A stretch of DNA of 37,179 nt from Candidatus Omnitrophota bacterium (GTDB taxonomy: Bacteria > Omnitrophota > Gorgyraeia > Duberdicusellales > 4484-171). The stretch spans positions 1 through 37,179 of the forward strand of contig JAMWCT010000002.1 in NCBI GenBank assembly GCA_023819525.1, given 5' to 3'. The position numbers were made by a program, and so were the translations under genes. This document shows positions 17,771-22,872 of the stretch, in pieces. The notes beneath the pieces were generated by a model. The model saw only the letters and a list, made by a program, of their open reading frames with translations, was not told the origin of the DNA and ran no database searches. Every line of letters begins with the position of its first letter. Position 1 is the stretch's first letter.

Positions 17771-19011
17771 AATTTTTTATAAAACTTATAAATATTTATT
17801 ATTTCTTTTGCGGTTGTAAATGAATCATGGTGCAAATAATTTGATTTACTGACAATATCTGCCTCAAATACCATTATACCCATTTTCTTTAGGCGCTCTC
17901 TATCAAAAACTACAGGAAATGATTTATCCTGAGAATATTTGGCTAAAAGCTCTGGTTTTAATCTACCAGAATTCACTAAACATGCATTTATAATATTTTT
18001 TTGGCTATGTCTAGTTAGAGTTTCTATATGATCAGCTGCGGTAAAGCCATCAGTTTCACCATGTTGGGTCATAACATTGCAAATATATAGCTTTAATATA
18101 TTTTTTTTAGAAATTTCTTCTGAAATTTGCGATATTAAAAGATTTGGTATGATGCTGGTGAACAAACTCCCTGGCCCTAAAACAATCATATCAGCCTCTC
18201 TTATGGCTTCTATTGCTTCTGGATTTGGCTGGGCATTTTCAGGTATAAGAAATATTCTAGAAATTGGTTTAGCTTCTGTAGGTATTTTATCTTCTCCTTC
18301 TTTTGTTGTCCCATCTTCGTATTGAGCCTTCAAGCGTATCTTATCTAAACTTGAAGGAATGACTTTACCCCTTATTGCCAAAATCTTACTTGATTCCTCT
18401 ATTGCATCTTTAAAACTACCAGTTACTTGCGTCATCGCTGTAATAAAAAGATTACCAAAACTATGTCCTCTAATACCATTCCCTTCTGTAAATCTATATT
18501 GAAAAAGGTCTCTCATCAATTGTGGTGCTTCAGCTAATGAAACTAAGCAATTTCGTATATCACCTGGTGGTAAAATTCCAAATTCTTCACGTAAACGACC
18601 TGATGAACCACCCTCATCTGCAACAGCAACAATCGCAATAATATTAGTAGTGTATTCTTTTAATCCAGCTAATATCATAGATAAACCTGTTCCGCCACCA
18701 ATAGCAACGATTTTAGGGCCACGCGCTAATTTTCGCCTTTCATAGAGAATTTCTATAAGTTCTTTTTGTTGATATGGATAAATTACTTCGAGAAAACTTT
18801 TAAAAAGATAAAATAATGCTGAAATGAGTAATATCAGTCCAATGGTAAATATTACTATACCGGTTACTCGTAATATAAAACGTGATTCATTAGACGAAAT
18901 ATGTGGAGCGCTAGATAGAATCATCACTAAACTTAAAACCAACAATATAATCCAACGCTTTATCCGTAGACCCGGATAAAACCAACGGATAATTTTTAAA
19001 AAATCAATCAT
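17764..19011 (-). CDS. yvcK: YvcK/GlmR (UPF0052) family UDP-sugar-binding protein with two N-terminal TM helices
   Basis: IVAIGGGTGLS, ADEGGSSGRLR, PPGDIRNCL, GHSFGNL, GPGSLFTSIIPNLL, CNVMTQHGET. Confidence 0.92.
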   Translation of the reverse strand: MIDFLKIIRWFYPGLRIKRWIILLVLSLVMILSSAPHISSNESRFILRVTGIVIFTIGLILLISALFYLFKSFLEVIYPYQQKELIEILYERRKLARGPKIVAIGGGTGLSMILAGLKEYTTNIIAIVAVADEGGSSGRLREEFGILPPGDIRNCLVSLAEAPQLMRDLFQYRFTEGNGIRGHSFGNLFITAMTQVTGSFKDAIEESSKILAIRGKVIPSSLDKIRLKAQYEDGTTKEGEDKIPTEAKPISRIFLIPENAQPNPEAIEAIREADMIVLGPGSLFTSIIPNLLISQISEEISKKNILKLYICNVMTQHGETDGFTAADHIETLTRHSQKNIINACLVNSGRLKPELLAKYSQDKSFPVVFDRERLKKMGIMVFEADIVSKSNYLHHDSFTTAKEIINIYKFYKKLW

Positions 19012-19481
19012 CTTATAAGTTGTTGATGCTTATTTATTAAATTAACGACTTCCTCTTGTGTTTTAGAATTTTTTAATTGCTGAACAAAGTATTTATCGCG
19101 TAAAAGTCTTGCTAAAAATGCTAACATCTTTAAATGTAAACCCGCTTCTTTTTCATTAGAAAGAAGTAGAGCAATAATATTTATTGGTTCTCCATCCAAT
19201 GAATTAAAATCAACTCCTTCCTCTGATATAGCTATGCAAATCAAAATATCCTTAACGCAATCAACCCTTGCATGAGGTAAAGCAATATAACCACCTATTG
19301 CTGTTGAGCCCATCTCCTCTCTTTGAAGAAGTTTCTTTAAAATGATTTTTTTATACGCCTTTTTTATTTTCTTTTTTGTAATCAGATGATCCAATATAAA
19401 AGAAAGAATTGTTTTTTTATTTTTTTGCTTCAGCCCTAAAATAACACAATCCTTATCAAAATGTTCTAAAATGTTATCCAC
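19008..19481 (-). CDS. ptsN: PTS IIA component (PtsN/Fru-Mtl-Ntr family)
   Basis: REEMGSTAIGGYIALPHAR (phospho-His), GVDFNSLDGEP, HLKMLAFLAR. GTG start preceded by an AAGGAG RBS. Confidence 0.9.
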   Translation of the reverse strand: MDNILEHFDKDCVILGLKQKNKKTILSFILDHLITKKKIKKAYKKIILKKLLQREEMGSTAIGGYIALPHARVDCVKDILICIAISEEGVDFNSLDGEPINIIALLLSNEKEAGLHLKMLAFLARLLRDKYFVQQLKNSKTQEEVVNLINKHQQLIR

Positions 19482-19527
19482 GCTCTCTCCTTAAAATTTT
19501 TAAGAAAATTTGAAGTTGTAAATTAAA

Positions 19528-19559
19528 CGATAAAAGTTTTATTCTGCAAATTTTTATCG
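19528..19559 (-). terminator. Possible weak hairpin or operator palindrome between tRNA-Gly and ptsN
   Basis: CGATAAAA (19528-35) pairs with TTTTATCG (19552-59), extendable by about 4 bp, and is followed on the minus strand by TTTAATTT. It is AT-rich, so it may be chance. Confidence 0.25.
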
Positions 19560-19586
19560 CTGTATTCAATTTAGCAATAAACTAAA

Positions 19587-19660
19587 AGCGGGCGAGGGGA
19601 ATTGAACCCCCAACCTTCACGTTGGCAACGTGACGCTCTAGCCGGTTGAGCTACACCCGC
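19587..19660 (-). tRNA. tRNA-Gly (GCC)
   Basis: Cloverleaf GCGGGTG...CGCCCGC-T; anticodon arm TCACG-TT-GCC-AA-CGTGA; U73 discriminator; CCA not encoded. Confidence 0.96.
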
Positions 19661-19688
19661 AAAGATATTTTTTAAATAACTATTCACC

Positions 19689-19775
19689 TGCGGATGGGGA
19701 GAGTTGAACTCCCATACTCTTTTTAGGAGTACTGGGTTCTAAGCCCAGCGCGTCTGCCAATTCCGCCACATCCGC
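19689..19775 (-). tRNA. tRNA-Leu (TAG)
   Basis: GCGGATG...CATCCGC-A; anticodon arm CTGGG-CT-TAG-AA-CCCAG; long variable arm; CCA not encoded. Confidence 0.96.
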
Positions 19776-19847
19776 GAAACGAAAATAAAAAATAGTTTTG
19801 CTGATATTAAAAAAATTTCTTTTAGCCATATTGAGGGCGTTTTATAA

Positions 19848-19856
19848 ATTATATCA
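19848..19856 (-). promoter_or_regulatory. Extended -10 promoter upstream of tRNA-Leu/tRNA-Gly
   Basis: Minus strand reads TGA-TATAAT, a perfect TGnTATAAT. No recognisable -35; that position falls in the duplicated tRNA-Lys flank. Confidence 0.5.
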
Positions 19857-19867
19857 CAAAAAAGATT

Positions 19868-19907
19868 TCGTTTTATTTTAAATGAGCCGCCTCAAGAATC
19901 GAACTCG
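19868..19907 (-). repeat. Direct-repeat copy of the tRNA-Lys 3' end plus 15 nt of flank (att-like)
   Basis: Matches 20108-20146 as 24 identical nt, then TCA versus CG, then 13 identical nt. Offset is 240 bp. Confidence 0.92.
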
Positions 19908-20107
19908 TCGCTTCGCTCCTCATAAGAGGGAAAACTACGTTTTCCCTCTTATGACGCTTTTCGCTGTCACTCCCTTTCCTTACAAAGAAGAGAAAGTGAT
20001 GTGAGGGAAAATTCTTTTCCCTCACGCTCCCTTTGCGAGTTCGCTTCTCTTATATGCTTTTATGAAAGAACTTTTTTGCTCTTTAAATTTGAATTTCTTG
20101 TTCGCTA
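19908..20107. mobile_element. 200-bp non-coding palindromic element (mini-island relic / MITE- or REP-like) at tRNA-Lys
   Basis: Bounded by the tRNA 3'-end direct repeats. Contains perfect hairpins at 19920-19954 (16 bp) and 20001-20025 (11 bp), an imperfect one at 19967-19999, and seven WCGCT motifs. No transposase or integrase. Confidence 0.55.
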
Positions 20108-20122
20108 TCGTTTTATTTTAAA

Positions 20123-20195
20123 TGAGCCGCCCGAGAATCGAACTCGGGACACCCGGCTTAAAAGGCCGGTGCTCTACCTACTGAGCTAGCGGCCC
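20123..20195 (-). tRNA. tRNA-Lys (TTT)
   Basis: GGGCCGC...GCGGCTC-A; anticodon arm CCGGC-CT-TTT-AA-GCCGG; T-arm CCGAG-TTCGATT-CTCGG; CCA not encoded. Confidence 0.96.
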
Positions 20196-20198
20196 AAA

Positions 20199-20759
20199 TT
20201 AAAATTCTTTCAATTCTCTTTCTTTTTCTTGAAGAATTTTATCTATCTGACTTATGTATTTATCGGTAATTTTCTGTAACTCCTCTTCAGCTTTAAAACG
20301 ATCGTCTTCAGAAATCTTTTTTTCTTTTTCTAAATTCTTAATTCTATCTTTTCCATTTTGTCTTACAGTTCTTATAGAAATTTTACCTTCTTCTGCCACT
20401 TTCTTCACTACTTTAGCTAGTTCATTTCTTCTTTCTTCAGACAAAGGTGGAATAATTAATCTAATTATCTTACCATCATTTATAGGGGTAACTCCTAAAT
20501 CTGACTGCAAGATTGCCTTTTCTATCTCTTTTAGAGAAGAAGGATCCCATGGATTTATAACAATCATTCTTGCCTCTGGAACAGTAATTGTAGCAATATC
20601 TTTTAAAAGAGTAGGTGTTCCATAGTAATTTACTTTTATTCCTTCAACAATTTTTGGATTGGCTCTACCTGAACGCAATTCTGAAAATTCTCTTTTTGTT
20701 GCATCTACAGCTTTTTTCATCTCTTCTTCTATTTCATTAAGAATTTGTTTATATAACAT
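20199..20759 (-). CDS. frr: Ribosome recycling factor
   Basis: LRSGRANP, VNYYGTPT, PWD, NDGKIIRLIIPPLSEERR; follows pyrH. Confidence 0.98.
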   Translation of the reverse strand: MLYKQILNEIEEEMKKAVDATKREFSELRSGRANPKIVEGIKVNYYGTPTLLKDIATITVPEARMIVINPWDPSSLKEIEKAILQSDLGVTPINDGKIIRLIIPPLSEERRNELAKVVKKVAEEGKISIRTVRQNGKDRIKNLEKEKKISEDDRFKAEEELQKITDKYISQIDKILQEKERELKEF

Positions 20760-20782
20760 AGGGCCCCCTTTTAAAAAATTCT

Positions 20783-21496
20783 CTAACTTATAAGTGTTCC
20801 TATCTCTTTACCTAAAACTATATCACGTAAATTACCTTCCTTCATAAAATTAAATACCCTTATTGGAAGATTGTTTTCTTTGCATAATGTAATAGCAGTT
20901 GTATCCATTATTTCTAAACCTTTATTAATAACATCCATATAAGATAATTTCTTAAATAATTTAGCACTTTTATTTTTTAAAGGATCATCCGAATAAACAC
21001 CATCTACCTTTGTACCTTTAAGTAAAATATCAACTTTAATCTCAATACCTCTTAATGCTGCTGCTGTATCCGTTGTAAAATATGGGTTACCTGTTCCTGC
21101 TACAAATATTACAACTCGTTTTTTTTCCAAATGCCTTATAGCACGACGTCTTATATATGGTTCTGCAATTTGTCGCATCTCAATAGCTGTCAAAACCCTT
21201 GTTGGAACAGAAGTATTCTCAAGGGCATTTTGTAGCGCTAAACCGTTAATAACAGTAGCAAGCATACCCATATAGTCTGCAACCGCTCTATCCATCTCAA
21301 ATTCTTTTGAACGAATTGCACCTCTAAAAATATTACCGCCTCCAACCACCAAAGCAATTTCTGTATTTAATTGAAAAACTTCTTTAAGTTGTTTGGCTAA
21401 ATGTGCACAGATAGCTGCATCAATCCCATGACTATATCTTCCTAAAAATGCTTCACCGCTTAATTTAAGGAGAACTCTTTTATATTTAGGTTTCAT
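20783..21496 (-). CDS. pyrH: UMP kinase
   Basis: [49 protein letters not shown] at 21496 (alternative GTG at 21502). Confidence 0.98.
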
Positions 21497-22010
21497 ACTC
21501 ACCCAAGCAAAAACGGCTAAATCTTTTAATCACAATATTTTCTCCTGTTTGAGCAATAATATTTTGTAAGCATTGCCCAACGGTCATAGTATCATCTTTA
21601 ATAAATACCTGCTCAAGTAAGCAATTTTTTTTTGCATATTCTTCACTATCTGTTATATTAAGTAATATTTCTTGCGGAATCTCTTTCCTTGTTATATATT
21701 TAGGAGAAGCTGCCGCTATATGCATCGCTAAATCTTTGGCAAATTTTTTAAAAACATCAGTATTAGCTACAAAATCAGTCTCGCAATTAAGTTCAACTAA
21801 CGCACCTACATTTCCATTAAAATGCACATAAGATTCAATTCTCCCTTGTAAAGTCAGCCTATCTTTCTTTTTTTCAAATACCTCAGCCCCTCGTTTTTTT
21901 AAAAGTTCTAAGGCTTTATTTAAATCACCTTTTGCTTCCTCCAAAGCTTTTTTACATTCACTCACCCCAACAGATGTTAGCTCTCTTAATTTCTTGATAT
22001 CATTTAGCAT
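21486..22010 (-). CDS. tsf: Elongation factor Ts (very short form, 174 aa)
   Basis: [46 protein letters not shown] at 22010 follows AGGAGGT (22027-22021); the ORF-track GTG lies inside that RBS. Confidence 0.95.
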
Positions 22011-22032
22011 AATTAAAAACACCTCCTAATTA

Positions 22033-22872
22033 TTAACTTTTTGTCACTTCTTTTTGCTTTGTGCGTTTCTTTATTTCTTTTTTCTCTTTTTCTATAACAT
22101 CTTCCTCTAACTCTTCATATTTTTCAACATTTGGCTCTTCTTCAACTGTCTCTTGCTTTTTAGGCTTTGCTGCGCCAACTTCTTCTAACTTTTTTATACC
22201 TTCAAGTATTGCATCTACTATCACAGACATTATGTATCTTACAGATTTTATTGCATCGTCATTTCCTGGAATAGGATAATCTATAATTTGCGGATCTCCA
22301 TCTGTATCAATTAAGGCTATAACAGGAATAGATAATCTATTTGCCTCTTTCACACAAGCAATTTCTTTTTTTGGATCAACTACAAAAATAGCATCTGGCA
22401 ATTCCTCTAAGGATTTTATTCCACTATAATTTCTTTCCATTCTTCGCAGTTCCCTATTAAGACGGACAACTGATTTTCTTGACATTTTATCAAATTCGCC
22501 TTTCTCTCTTTTTTCTAAAAGCAAAATGTATTTTTGCACTCTTTTCCTTACTGTTGAAAAATTTGTTAAAAGTCCACCAATCCATCTATCAACCATATAA
22601 GGCATATTGCAACTACTTGCCAACTCTTTAGTTAAATCTTTAAGCTGTTTTTTTGTTGCGACAAAAAGAATCTTTCCGCCTTCTTGAGCAATTTGTCTGA
22701 CAAAATCTTTTGCTTCCTCCAGTTTCTGAGCAGTCTTTTCTAAATCAATAATGTATACATTTTTCTTTTTGCCAAAAATAAATTTCTTCATTTTTGGATT
22801 CCAATGTTTACTTAAATGACCAAAATGCACACCATTCTCTAATAATTCTTTAATTATCTGCGGTAAAGCCAT
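22033..22872 (-). CDS. rpsB: 30S ribosomal protein S2
   Basis: LLENGVHFGH, WNPKM, RWIGGLLTN, IPGNDDAIKS; charged C-terminal tail; AGGAGG RBS. Confidence 0.98.
   Translation of the reverse strand: MALPQIIKELLENGVHFGHLSKHWNPKMKKFIFGKKKNVYIIDLEKTAQKLEEAKDFVRQIAQEGGKILFVATKKQLKDLTKELASSCNMPYMVDRWIGGLLTNFSTVRKRVQKYILLLEKREKGEFDKMSRKSVVRLNRELRRMERNYSGIKSLEELPDAIFVVDPKKEIACVKEANRLSIPVIALIDTDGDPQIIDYPIPGNDDAIKSVRYIMSVIVDAILEGIKKLEEVGAAKPKKQETVEEEPNVEKYEELEEDVIEKEKKEIKKRTKQKEVTKS

Follow-up and report, generated by a model that had tools for sequence, protein, structure and literature searches.

tRNA genes are classic landing sites for mobile DNA, and the recognition of these sites is normally credited to integrase proteins. 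Among the systems in which an RNA takes part, bridge RNAs possess two internal loops that bind adjacent half-sites, and long direct repeats are not known to accompany IS110 insertion. A preprint describes partial duplicates of a tRNA next to its gene as the usual scar of integrative elements (bioRxiv 10.1101/2022.07.05.498093). The stretch of DNA analysed here, hereafter the window, comprises 37,179 nucleotides from a Candidatus Omnitrophota bacterium (GCA_023819525.1, contig JAMWCT010000002.1), and a tRNA cluster on its minus strand contains such a duplicate. Behind an intact tRNA-Lys gene, read on the tRNA strand, lie a segment antisense to the T-arm of that tRNA (anti-T), a conserved core of hairpins, and a sense copy of the tRNA 3' end (the decoy). 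With moderate confidence, this arrangement is explained as a small non-autonomous, tRNA-targeted insertion element specifying a structured RNA that is closed by anti-T and the duplicated T-arm. The descriptive claims, namely that the feature is real, not due to chance, and part of a widespread, structured, tRNA-linked and insertion-polymorphic family absent from Rfam, are well supported.

The repeat search recovered both inverted matches that a first-pass annotation of this DNA had reported. Anti-T (20036-20049, minus strand, GAGAAGCGAACTCG), the candidate 5' strand of a closing helix P1, complements positions 50-63 of tRNA-Lys, matching 20133-20146 over 14 nt at 93% (13/14; inverted pair I10) with G opposite A58 as the one mismatch, and its 20036-20048 portion matches 19895-19907 over 13 nt at 92% (12/13; pair I15). 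Chance is excluded as the source of these matches: with ≤2 mismatches, three occurrences of the T-arm 14-mer were counted in the 37-kb window where 0.06 would be expected, 0/100 shuffles contain as many, and the three are tRNA-Lys, its direct copy and its inverted copy. The duplicated T-arm noted in the same annotation is present as well, but its extent had been understated, as it is the inner portion of a longer direct repeat of 40 bp (19868-19907 versus 20108-20146; spacing 240/239; families D1 and D5) in which 24 nt are identical, 3 versus 2 nt differ, and a further 13 nt are identical. The proximal copy (20108-20146, minus) holds tRNA-Lys positions 50-73, that is, the T-arm and acceptor 3' strand, plus 15 nt of trailer; the tRNA-Lys(UUU) gene itself is intact, without an encoded CCA (20122-20196, minus; ARAGORN, and Rfam RF00005 with 69.3 bits at 20123-20195). 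The distal copy consists of the decoy T' (19883-19907, minus), a copy of tRNA-Lys 50-73 with an altered T-stem 3' strand (3 versus 2 nt) and the candidate 3' strand of P1, followed at the end of the repeat by a copy of the trailer's first 15 nt (19868-19882, minus). An AT-rich spacer (20050-20107, minus), unconserved between genomes to the point that copies cannot be aligned, separates the proximal repeat from anti-T and contains a small hairpin at ~20065-20084 in the minimum free energy (MFE) fold.

The 121 nt between the inverted and direct copies are occupied by the conserved structured core (19915-20035, minus), supported by hairpins (I4, I17), by covariation, and by a match of 123.1 bits (E 1e-27) to R1, a covariance model built from the core alone of 14 copies (131 positions, 33 pairs). 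Along the minus strand, the core comprises J1/2 (CAAAGGGAG, 20027-20035), hairpin P2 (20001-20025), hairpin P3 (19968-19998), the linker UGACA with the P4 stub (GCGAAAAGC, 19956-19964), and hairpin P5 (19920-19954), and leads into GGAGCGAAGCGA (19908-19919), of which only the start is inside the core and which extends 7 nt past the model match. The multibranch fold that had been proposed, with three long hairpins closed by the helix of anti-T and the copy, was obtained for minus-strand 20052-19882 at -74.9 kcal/mol (z-score -7.9; 0/200 shuffles fold as well), and computed duplexes bore out that anti-T is able to pair with either T-arm copy. No open reading frame (ORF) of ≥60 aa was found in the 240-bp unit except frames spanning the hairpins. 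A 50-aa ORF at 19873-20025 was rejected as coding: it crosses hairpins, and the homologues vary by non-triplet hairpin insertions, so the region was treated as non-coding.

Across the family, the unit keeps one order on the tRNA strand: the intact tRNA is followed by a spacer, an antisense segment set against the core, the core, and a sense tRNA copy, the whole being protein-less and ~200-290 bp in size. One such copy is represented in the window by the 240 bp separating the two direct-repeat copies plus the distal repeat itself. The spacer measures 25-100 nt and includes a terminator hairpin in the Asn and Gln copies. Anti-T comprises 8-17 nt opposite the variable-loop/T-arm region of the host tRNA, with a near-fixed GAGAAC/GCGAAC motif opposite G53-A58. 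The multi-hairpin core of 115-165 nt runs from CAAAGGGAG through P2, P3, UGACAG, a variable P4, CG and P5 with its conserved GUA loop, ending with GGAG, a variable hairpin P6 and then GCGAC. The sense copy extends from a loop/helix junction to the tRNA 3' end, often into the trailer, and starts at position 38/39 in Pro, at 44-45 in Phe, Met and Thr, at 50 in Lys, Asn and Gln, and at 56-57 in one array of a single relative (G108; G, C and L numbers are our handles for genomes, contigs and loci).

Covariation was assessed on a model-fitted alignment of 91 matches, with 500 shuffles and five measures. Paired bases fill 94.1% of the cells, and changes on both sides occur in 31 of the 33 pairs; none of the 500 shuffles reached any of the five measures, and sliding the partners by 1-3 columns left 50-69% pairing. 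Helix P2, the base of P4, and P5 including its outer three pairs (UA 53 / CG 20) are well supported, and the support for P3 is weaker (80%). G.U pairs number 176 versus 43 A.C, an excess indicating that the fold belongs to the tRNA-sense single strand, as would be expected for an RNA co-transcribed with the tRNA and, less probably, for single-stranded DNA of that strand. RNAalifold paired CAAAGGGAG with the pyrimidine strand of P3, an alternative rejected for want of double changes, which the P3 hairpin has in 6/7 pairs. A promoter belonging to the element is not supported either, a TATAAG box being present in only ~10 of the 40 listed copies, 16-22 nt (~30 nt in the Pro type) upstream of the core.

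The window's genome harbors a second copy of the core behind tRNA-Pro(GGG) on contig C3 (91% identity over ~105 nt), and a BLAST search of 60 relatives added 14 more genomes with the core, each time next to tRNAs. Matches to R1 occur in 2 places in the window's genome, in 26/74 genomes of the taxonomic family (19/37 genera), and in 24/151 genomes sampled across the phylum, where they fall in many families of one class; these sets are samples, and many of the genomes are incomplete. The highest number for one genome is 11, in G108. Core identity between genera is 75-90%, whereas the neighbouring spacers are unalignable. The host tRNAs have at least nine identities: Lys, Pro, Thr, Met, Phe, Asn, Gln, Leu and Ala. 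A same-strand tRNA lies ≤120 nt upstream of 19 of the 30 best matches; another 4 are later array units behind a tRNA, 4 touch contig starts, and 2 lie behind an inserted island, 12.5 kb (G022) or ~11 kb (G075) from tRNA-Asn. The remaining match (63.5 bits, from a different family) lacks an upstream tRNA and has a whole, unrelated tRNA-Met directly downstream. None of these 30 clearly contradicts the tRNA-upstream pattern. A copy with 62.5 bits lies behind a tRNA-Asn that ARAGORN overlooked owing to a group I intron. Such split tRNA-Asn(GUU) genes, both missed by ARAGORN, were observed in two relatives (L103:1219-1541, that is, G022:C4:118060-118382, and L104, G078:C9:14676-15374), where inserts of 247 nt and ~626 nt after position 35 in the anticodon loop match Rfam Intron_gpI with 82.3 and 74.9 bits. 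Loose pattern scans were dominated by chance matches, with R1 confirming 0/80 loci of at least 120 in genome contigs and 1/80 of at least 118 in viral contigs.

Among more distant variants (30-55 bits, other families), some cores lack tRNA-derived flanks and possess a terminator of their own; one runs straight into a whole tRNA-Met, and another into the 5'-terminal 20 nt of tRNA-Thr; and one occupies the variable loop of a tRNA-Met pseudogene, downstream of which an intact tRNA-Met is found. G108 has oppositely oriented cores that are interleaved with 21-nt repeats of a tRNA 3' end. Such variants point to the core being an independent RNA gene, with its tRNA association a property at the DNA level. 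As side observations, the intact tRNA-Met beside the pseudogene (L065:1240-1830, G015:C29) lies 152 nt downstream, and the pseudogene bears two further GC-rich hairpin insertions of a similar kind, one following position 26 and one within the T-loop region. The G108 arrays (L096:900-1950, G108:C4; L077, G108:C24) are built from a core variant whose P2 is extended and which has a long terminator hairpin of its own; these units are opposite to the tRNA and separated by 21-35-nt repeats of the tRNA 3' end, with one canonical unit inserted among them.

The flanks of the copies track the local tRNA, and the complementarity noted in the window is kept in its homologues. In most copies, the 5' flank complements the cognate tRNA at 9-12/12 positions over the best 12-nt stretch, and against every non-cognate tRNA the cognate match is higher in 17/29 copies, tied in 8/29 and lower in 4/29. 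The 5' flanks pair better with their own 3' flanks than with those of other copies (mean -16.2 versus -12.7 kcal/mol, n=42, Wilcoxon p=2e-4, a generous value as the copies are related). At the frr/tRNA-Lys/tRNA-Leu locus of nine genera, T-loop positions 59-60 read TT, GC, GT, TC or CC, and in most of these genera anti-T changes accordingly. The two copies within the window's genome have derived core features in common (e.g. a perfect 16-bp P5) and unrelated anti-segments, directed at Lys 50-63 and Pro 38-52, the Pro match being 14/15. Anti-T pairs with the real tRNA at least as strongly as with the decoy in 18 of 21 comparable copies (for example, -31.1 versus -19.8, -27.3 versus -18.8 and -30.6 versus -16.3 kcal/mol).

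Anti-T is nevertheless no plain complement of the tRNA: it usually has G opposite A58 and often A opposite G57 (GAGAAC/GCGAAC versus TCGAAC), an irregularity found in Lys, Gln, Leu, Phe, Thr and Asn contexts. The decoy is often altered at 56-58, with C56G in two genera and hairpin insertions in the Asn, Gln and Thr copies. Taken together, the anti-T mismatches and decoy changes place a recurrent purine-rich irregularity at the centre of P1. A "central dinucleotide kept" signature of serine recombination was considered and rejected, because GA opposite 57-58 occurs also where the tRNA has AA. Separately, the window's genome encodes a GCD14/TrmI-family methyltransferase, possibly a tRNA m1A58 methylase (G000:C96:17851-18342, minus, 116 bits), which is of interest in that the anti-T segments avoid a Watson-Crick partner for A58. 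As an idea only, A58 may be methylated in the host.

Insertion polymorphism was observed between two genomes of one genus, other than that of the window's genome. In G032, tRNA-Lys and tRNA-Leu are separated by 9 nt, whereas the same site in G063 is filled by an insert of 284 nt (BLAST break; ~290 nt by eye) composed of a spacer, anti-T, the core and a degenerate tRNA 3' copy, which shows that the spacer is part of the insert. Direct repeats of 16-96 nt surround many copies and include lineage-specific trailer, indicating recent duplication or homogenisation. Tandem units are also found, two identical ones in G031 and in G001 and two diverged ones in G041, and at tRNA-Phe of G012 and G031 the element forms mixed arrays with an unrelated small element of the same logic. 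This second small unit (L030:640-1120, G012; L033:270-1000, G031) begins with a stretch antisense to the acceptor 3' strand, continues with a short core and ends in a tRNA 3' copy plus trailer, and it is present in 2-3 repeats interleaved with the element studied here.

Collectively, these observations are consistent with a tRNA-targeted insertion element. The unit would enter a tRNA gene by site-specific insertion, bringing a replacement 3' end, so that the intact tRNA would be kept and the displaced 3' end would become the decoy. It would then be transcribed within the tRNA precursor, in which anti-T would pair with the decoy T-arm and close the core as helix P1. Anti-T may tie each copy to its tRNA either as a guide-like recognition segment or as a closing strand under selection for complementarity. 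A bolder proposal, which is considerably less probable and is made tentatively, is that the unit specifies a programmable tRNA-directed RNA whose anti-T would recognise a given tRNA or tRNA gene, serving as the guide of an RNA-directed insertion system that would place small RNA genes in tRNA loci and restore the tRNA, or as a trailer-borne sensor controlling maturation of the tRNA upstream of it, and representing an undescribed class either way.

Several observations weigh against the insertion-element explanation. No candidate mobilising enzyme was found: neither PF01548 (the DEDD/IS110-type transposase) nor a reverse transcriptase (RVT_1) was detected in the 90%-complete genome. The large serine recombinases that accompany some copies were rejected as mobilisers, as their islands are separate insertions. 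Identical tRNA loci are occupied across genera, which fits old vertical insertions and repeated insertion alike, so current mobility is not shown, and the copy number is low (2 in the window's genome, 1-11 per genome). The tRNA-Pro copy is without the P5 3' half and the decoy, which suggests decay. The anti-segment is not better than background in 4/29 copies, and some distant matches (30-50 bits) are stand-alone cores with a terminator, precede tRNAs instead of following them, or are inverted, so that the flank logic is not universal. Moreover, the covariation alignment was itself fitted to the model, and the preference for RNA over single-stranded DNA is drawn from sequence, through strand asymmetry and position only.

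The search for a partner also covered the surroundings of the copies. The ORFs flanking the relatives' loci (100/231 scanned) are housekeeping genes, syntenic for each tRNA type, which argues against a protein encoded in cis; they include no DEDD/IS110 transposase and no RVT_1, and no autonomous, ORF-bearing version was found among 61 loci, unrelated islands aside. In an IMG/VR contig (L352, 12.4 kb), G022 and G075, the element is at the far end of 8-12.5-kb islands that contain defence genes and, beside tRNA-Asn, a large serine recombinase. Immediately upstream of the element are a displaced tRNA-Asn 3' end and its terminator, indicating that the entry of the island parted the tRNA from an element already present. 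Genomes with both recombinase and element are no commoner than expected by chance (both in 14 genomes, element only in 12, recombinase only in 20, neither in 28; odds ratio ~1.6), and the core was found in 0/30 recombinase loci. As a side observation, 10/30 recombinase loci lie beside tRNA-Asn or tRNA-Gln, including two intron-bearing tRNA-Asn genes. The cargo of such islands includes a TIR-domain protein or a type III restriction-modification system (e.g. L353, G022:C4:117800-131600), and such a recombinase adjoins tRNA-Asn on a short contig of the window's genome (G000:C33:846-1895, L362).

Of the alternatives, the one that survives best, although it remains unlikely, is a switch on tRNA maturation, the first idea of the first-pass annotation. 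The core would act as a sensor: with P1 stable, the tRNA would mature, and otherwise anti-T would invade the T-arm and the precursor would misfold or be degraded. Anti-T pairing with the tRNA that equals or exceeds its pairing with the decoy (18/21 copies) accords with this view, but neutral decay of the decoy would equally give stronger tRNA pairing. The core is riboswitch-like in its multi-helix junction, invariant linker nucleotides, variable peripheral stems and closing P1; the element is embedded in tRNA operons, where the terminator scan found none between the genes, and is kept at the same tRNA loci across genera. The MFE fold of tRNA plus element already mixes the partners, with the tRNA 5' acceptor strand pairing with the distal acceptor copy. 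However, anti-T is transcribed 60-100 nt later, when the tRNA has had time to fold, and in copies of the Asn/Gln type a terminator hairpin separates the element from the tRNA. In G022 and G075, the element is intact at ~11-12.5 kb from its tRNA, and the stand-alone and opposite-orientation relatives also speak against such a role. No ligand is apparent, nor is there a reason for one signal common to nine unrelated tRNAs.

Slightly less likely again is a feature acting at the DNA level, in which a folded single-stranded attachment site would imitate the T-arm duplex and a recombinase, either host-encoded or trans-acting, would integrate a very small circle; the hairpins would then be structures of single-stranded DNA and not of RNA. 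Against this, the loop of attC or CTX sites is variable, while the core here is long and conserved and keeps invariant unpaired nucleotides, and its 176 G.U (G.T) pairs suit RNA better than DNA. The stem sequence does equal the target duplex, with the recurrent irregularity in mid-stem (anti-T opposite A58/G57; decoy 56-58), and the direct repeats run from the T-arm to past the tRNA end. The tandem and mixed (tRNA-Phe) arrays and the two orientations in G108 would also fit, as would the GCGAAGC stubs, which resemble very stable DNA mini-hairpins. Nonetheless, orientation follows the tRNA strand in nearly all strong copies, the stand-alone relatives with rho-independent terminators resemble RNA genes, and no recombinase partner was identified in the loci and genomes searched.

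A trans-acting guide RNA of an RNA-guided recombinase or transposase is improbable, a little more so than the attachment site. In this scheme, the core would be a protein-binding scaffold and anti-T a programmable guide choosing the insertion point. It would account for one scaffold combined with at least nine target-matched anti-segments set directly against it, for the 3' junction GCGAC that always abuts the first nucleotide of the anti-T-paired segment, and for the two copies of one genome with derived core features in common and unrelated guides. The failure to find a DEDD/IS110 transposase or reverse transcriptase in the genome, or an ORF-bearing version among the 61 loci, tells against it. 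In addition, anti-T and the decoy are fully complementary, unlike the two-loop design of bridge RNA, and long direct repeats are not a known feature of IS110 insertion.

The already disfavoured reading of the unit as an inert relic, the cargo-less remains of an integrase-borne island in tRNA-Lys (attL, remnant, attR) with functionless hairpins and inverted match, is very improbable: partial tRNA duplicates are the usual integrative scar according to the preprint (bioRxiv 10.1101/2022.07.05.498093), real large-serine-recombinase islands occur at tRNA-Asn/Gln in the family and the tRNA-Pro copy is truncated, but a relic would not be expected to keep a core 75-90% identical across genera beside unalignable spacers, with compensatory changes in 31/33 pairs, an anti-T that tracks tRNA changes, and the same core behind nine tRNA types.

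The insertion element is the preferred explanation. If the antisense segment recognises the target, it would be a new, naturally reprogrammable way to address tRNA loci; if it acts on the transcript, the unit would be the first trailer-encoded element competing for the T-arm of its own tRNA. On the most conservative reading, the copies form a widespread structured non-coding family, missing from Rfam, in a poorly known phylum, and this family accounts for many of the "partial tRNA" fragments facing annotation pipelines there.

In the window, the element sits within a minus-strand Lys-Leu-Gly tRNA cluster (19587-20196), between tRNA-Lys, the first gene, and tRNA-Leu(UAG) (19689-19775, minus), across a 346-nt gap; tRNA-Gly(GCC) follows at 19587-19660 (minus), both downstream genes being called by ARAGORN and Rfam. 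A scan of 19400-20900 found no sigma-70-like promoter and no minus-strand terminator. The neighbouring genes, named from translations read by eye, look like housekeeping genes for phosphotransferase system (PTS) components, ribosome recycling factor, UMP kinase, EF-Ts and S2, with Pfam confirmation of these families coming from the relatives' loci only. The cluster is flanked by a PTS EIIA-2-like gene and frr, pyrH, tsf and rpsB (19008-19481 and 20199-22872), and the same synteny was observed at the tRNA-Lys loci of eight other genera (Pfam, relatives' loci).

The first-pass annotation's remark that no named family has this layout agrees with both the database and the literature searches. At the gathering score, Rfam 15 matched only the three tRNAs in the window, and with E up to 10, region 19780-20125 gave 18 matches at 10-19 bits, against cut-offs of 40-90. 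The literature search, which included a 2026 preprint on non-coding-RNA discovery, returned no description of such an element. The element family is apparently undescribed so far.

Comparison with known systems places the element nearest to several of them without identity to any. The first-pass annotation had offered a miniature inverted-repeat transposable element (MITE) whose terminal inverted repeats mimic a T-arm. A small size, the lack of proteins, repetition, tRNA adjacency and polymorphism between filled and empty sites all agree with that proposal, but the element is not a classical MITE, and the label is only loosely right. Its "terminal inverted repeat" derives from the target and so varies between host tRNAs, and the right inverted arm merely opens a long direct repeat. 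The flanking duplication measures 16-96 bp, against 2-10 bp in MITEs, for which a parent transposon would also be expected but none is known here. Copies are few (2 in the window's genome), and the interior is a conserved, covarying structured core. A closing helix is a point of likeness to retron non-coding RNA, although an adjacent reverse transcriptase was not found here.

Riboswitches and spacer RNAs of tRNA operons, such as those derived from the 3' external transcribed spacer (3'ETS), resemble the element in belonging to a tRNA transcription unit and in having a multi-helix junction and a P1 with an alternative partner; a conserved aptamer-like junction with covariation-supported helices, as in a riboswitch-like regulator, is present. 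The element differs in lying 3' of the gene possibly affected, in having no known ligand or expression platform, and in its link to sequence duplication and insertion polymorphism. CTX phage attP(+) and integron attC likewise have inverted segments that pair to imitate a duplex target with an irregular centre, and likewise build up arrays, whereas the target here is a tRNA gene rather than dif or attI, and the intervening 120-165 nt are conserved and structured instead of varying freely.

Guide-bearing mobile RNAs, including the bridge/seek RNAs of IS110/IS1111, group II introns with their exon- and intron-binding sites (EBS-IBS), and the internal guide sequence of group I introns, have in common with the element a structured scaffold joined to a variable target-complementary segment that covaries with its target. 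Group I and II intron covariance models gave no match in the element with Rfam, and the same tool detects the group I intron in the relatives' tRNA-Asn. Unlike those systems, the element has no recombinase, transposase or reverse transcriptase gene in cis or found in the genome, its guide pairs 3' of the junction, and a sense copy of the target is also carried. In layout it appears to depart from the IS110/IS1111 bridge or seek RNA, with its two internal loops and split guides for target and donor, in having one antisense segment and one sense copy, which are mutually complementary.

Integrative elements that target tRNA 3' ends agree with the element in leaving the tRNA gene intact, in direct repeats running from the T-arm or variable loop to or beyond the 3' end, in tandem accretion at one tRNA, and in the presence of filled and empty sites among relatives. 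The element differs from them in its size of ~240 bp without integrase or ORF, in joining a covarying structured core to an antisense copy of the target set against it, and in the use by one family of at least nine tRNAs and several positions within them.

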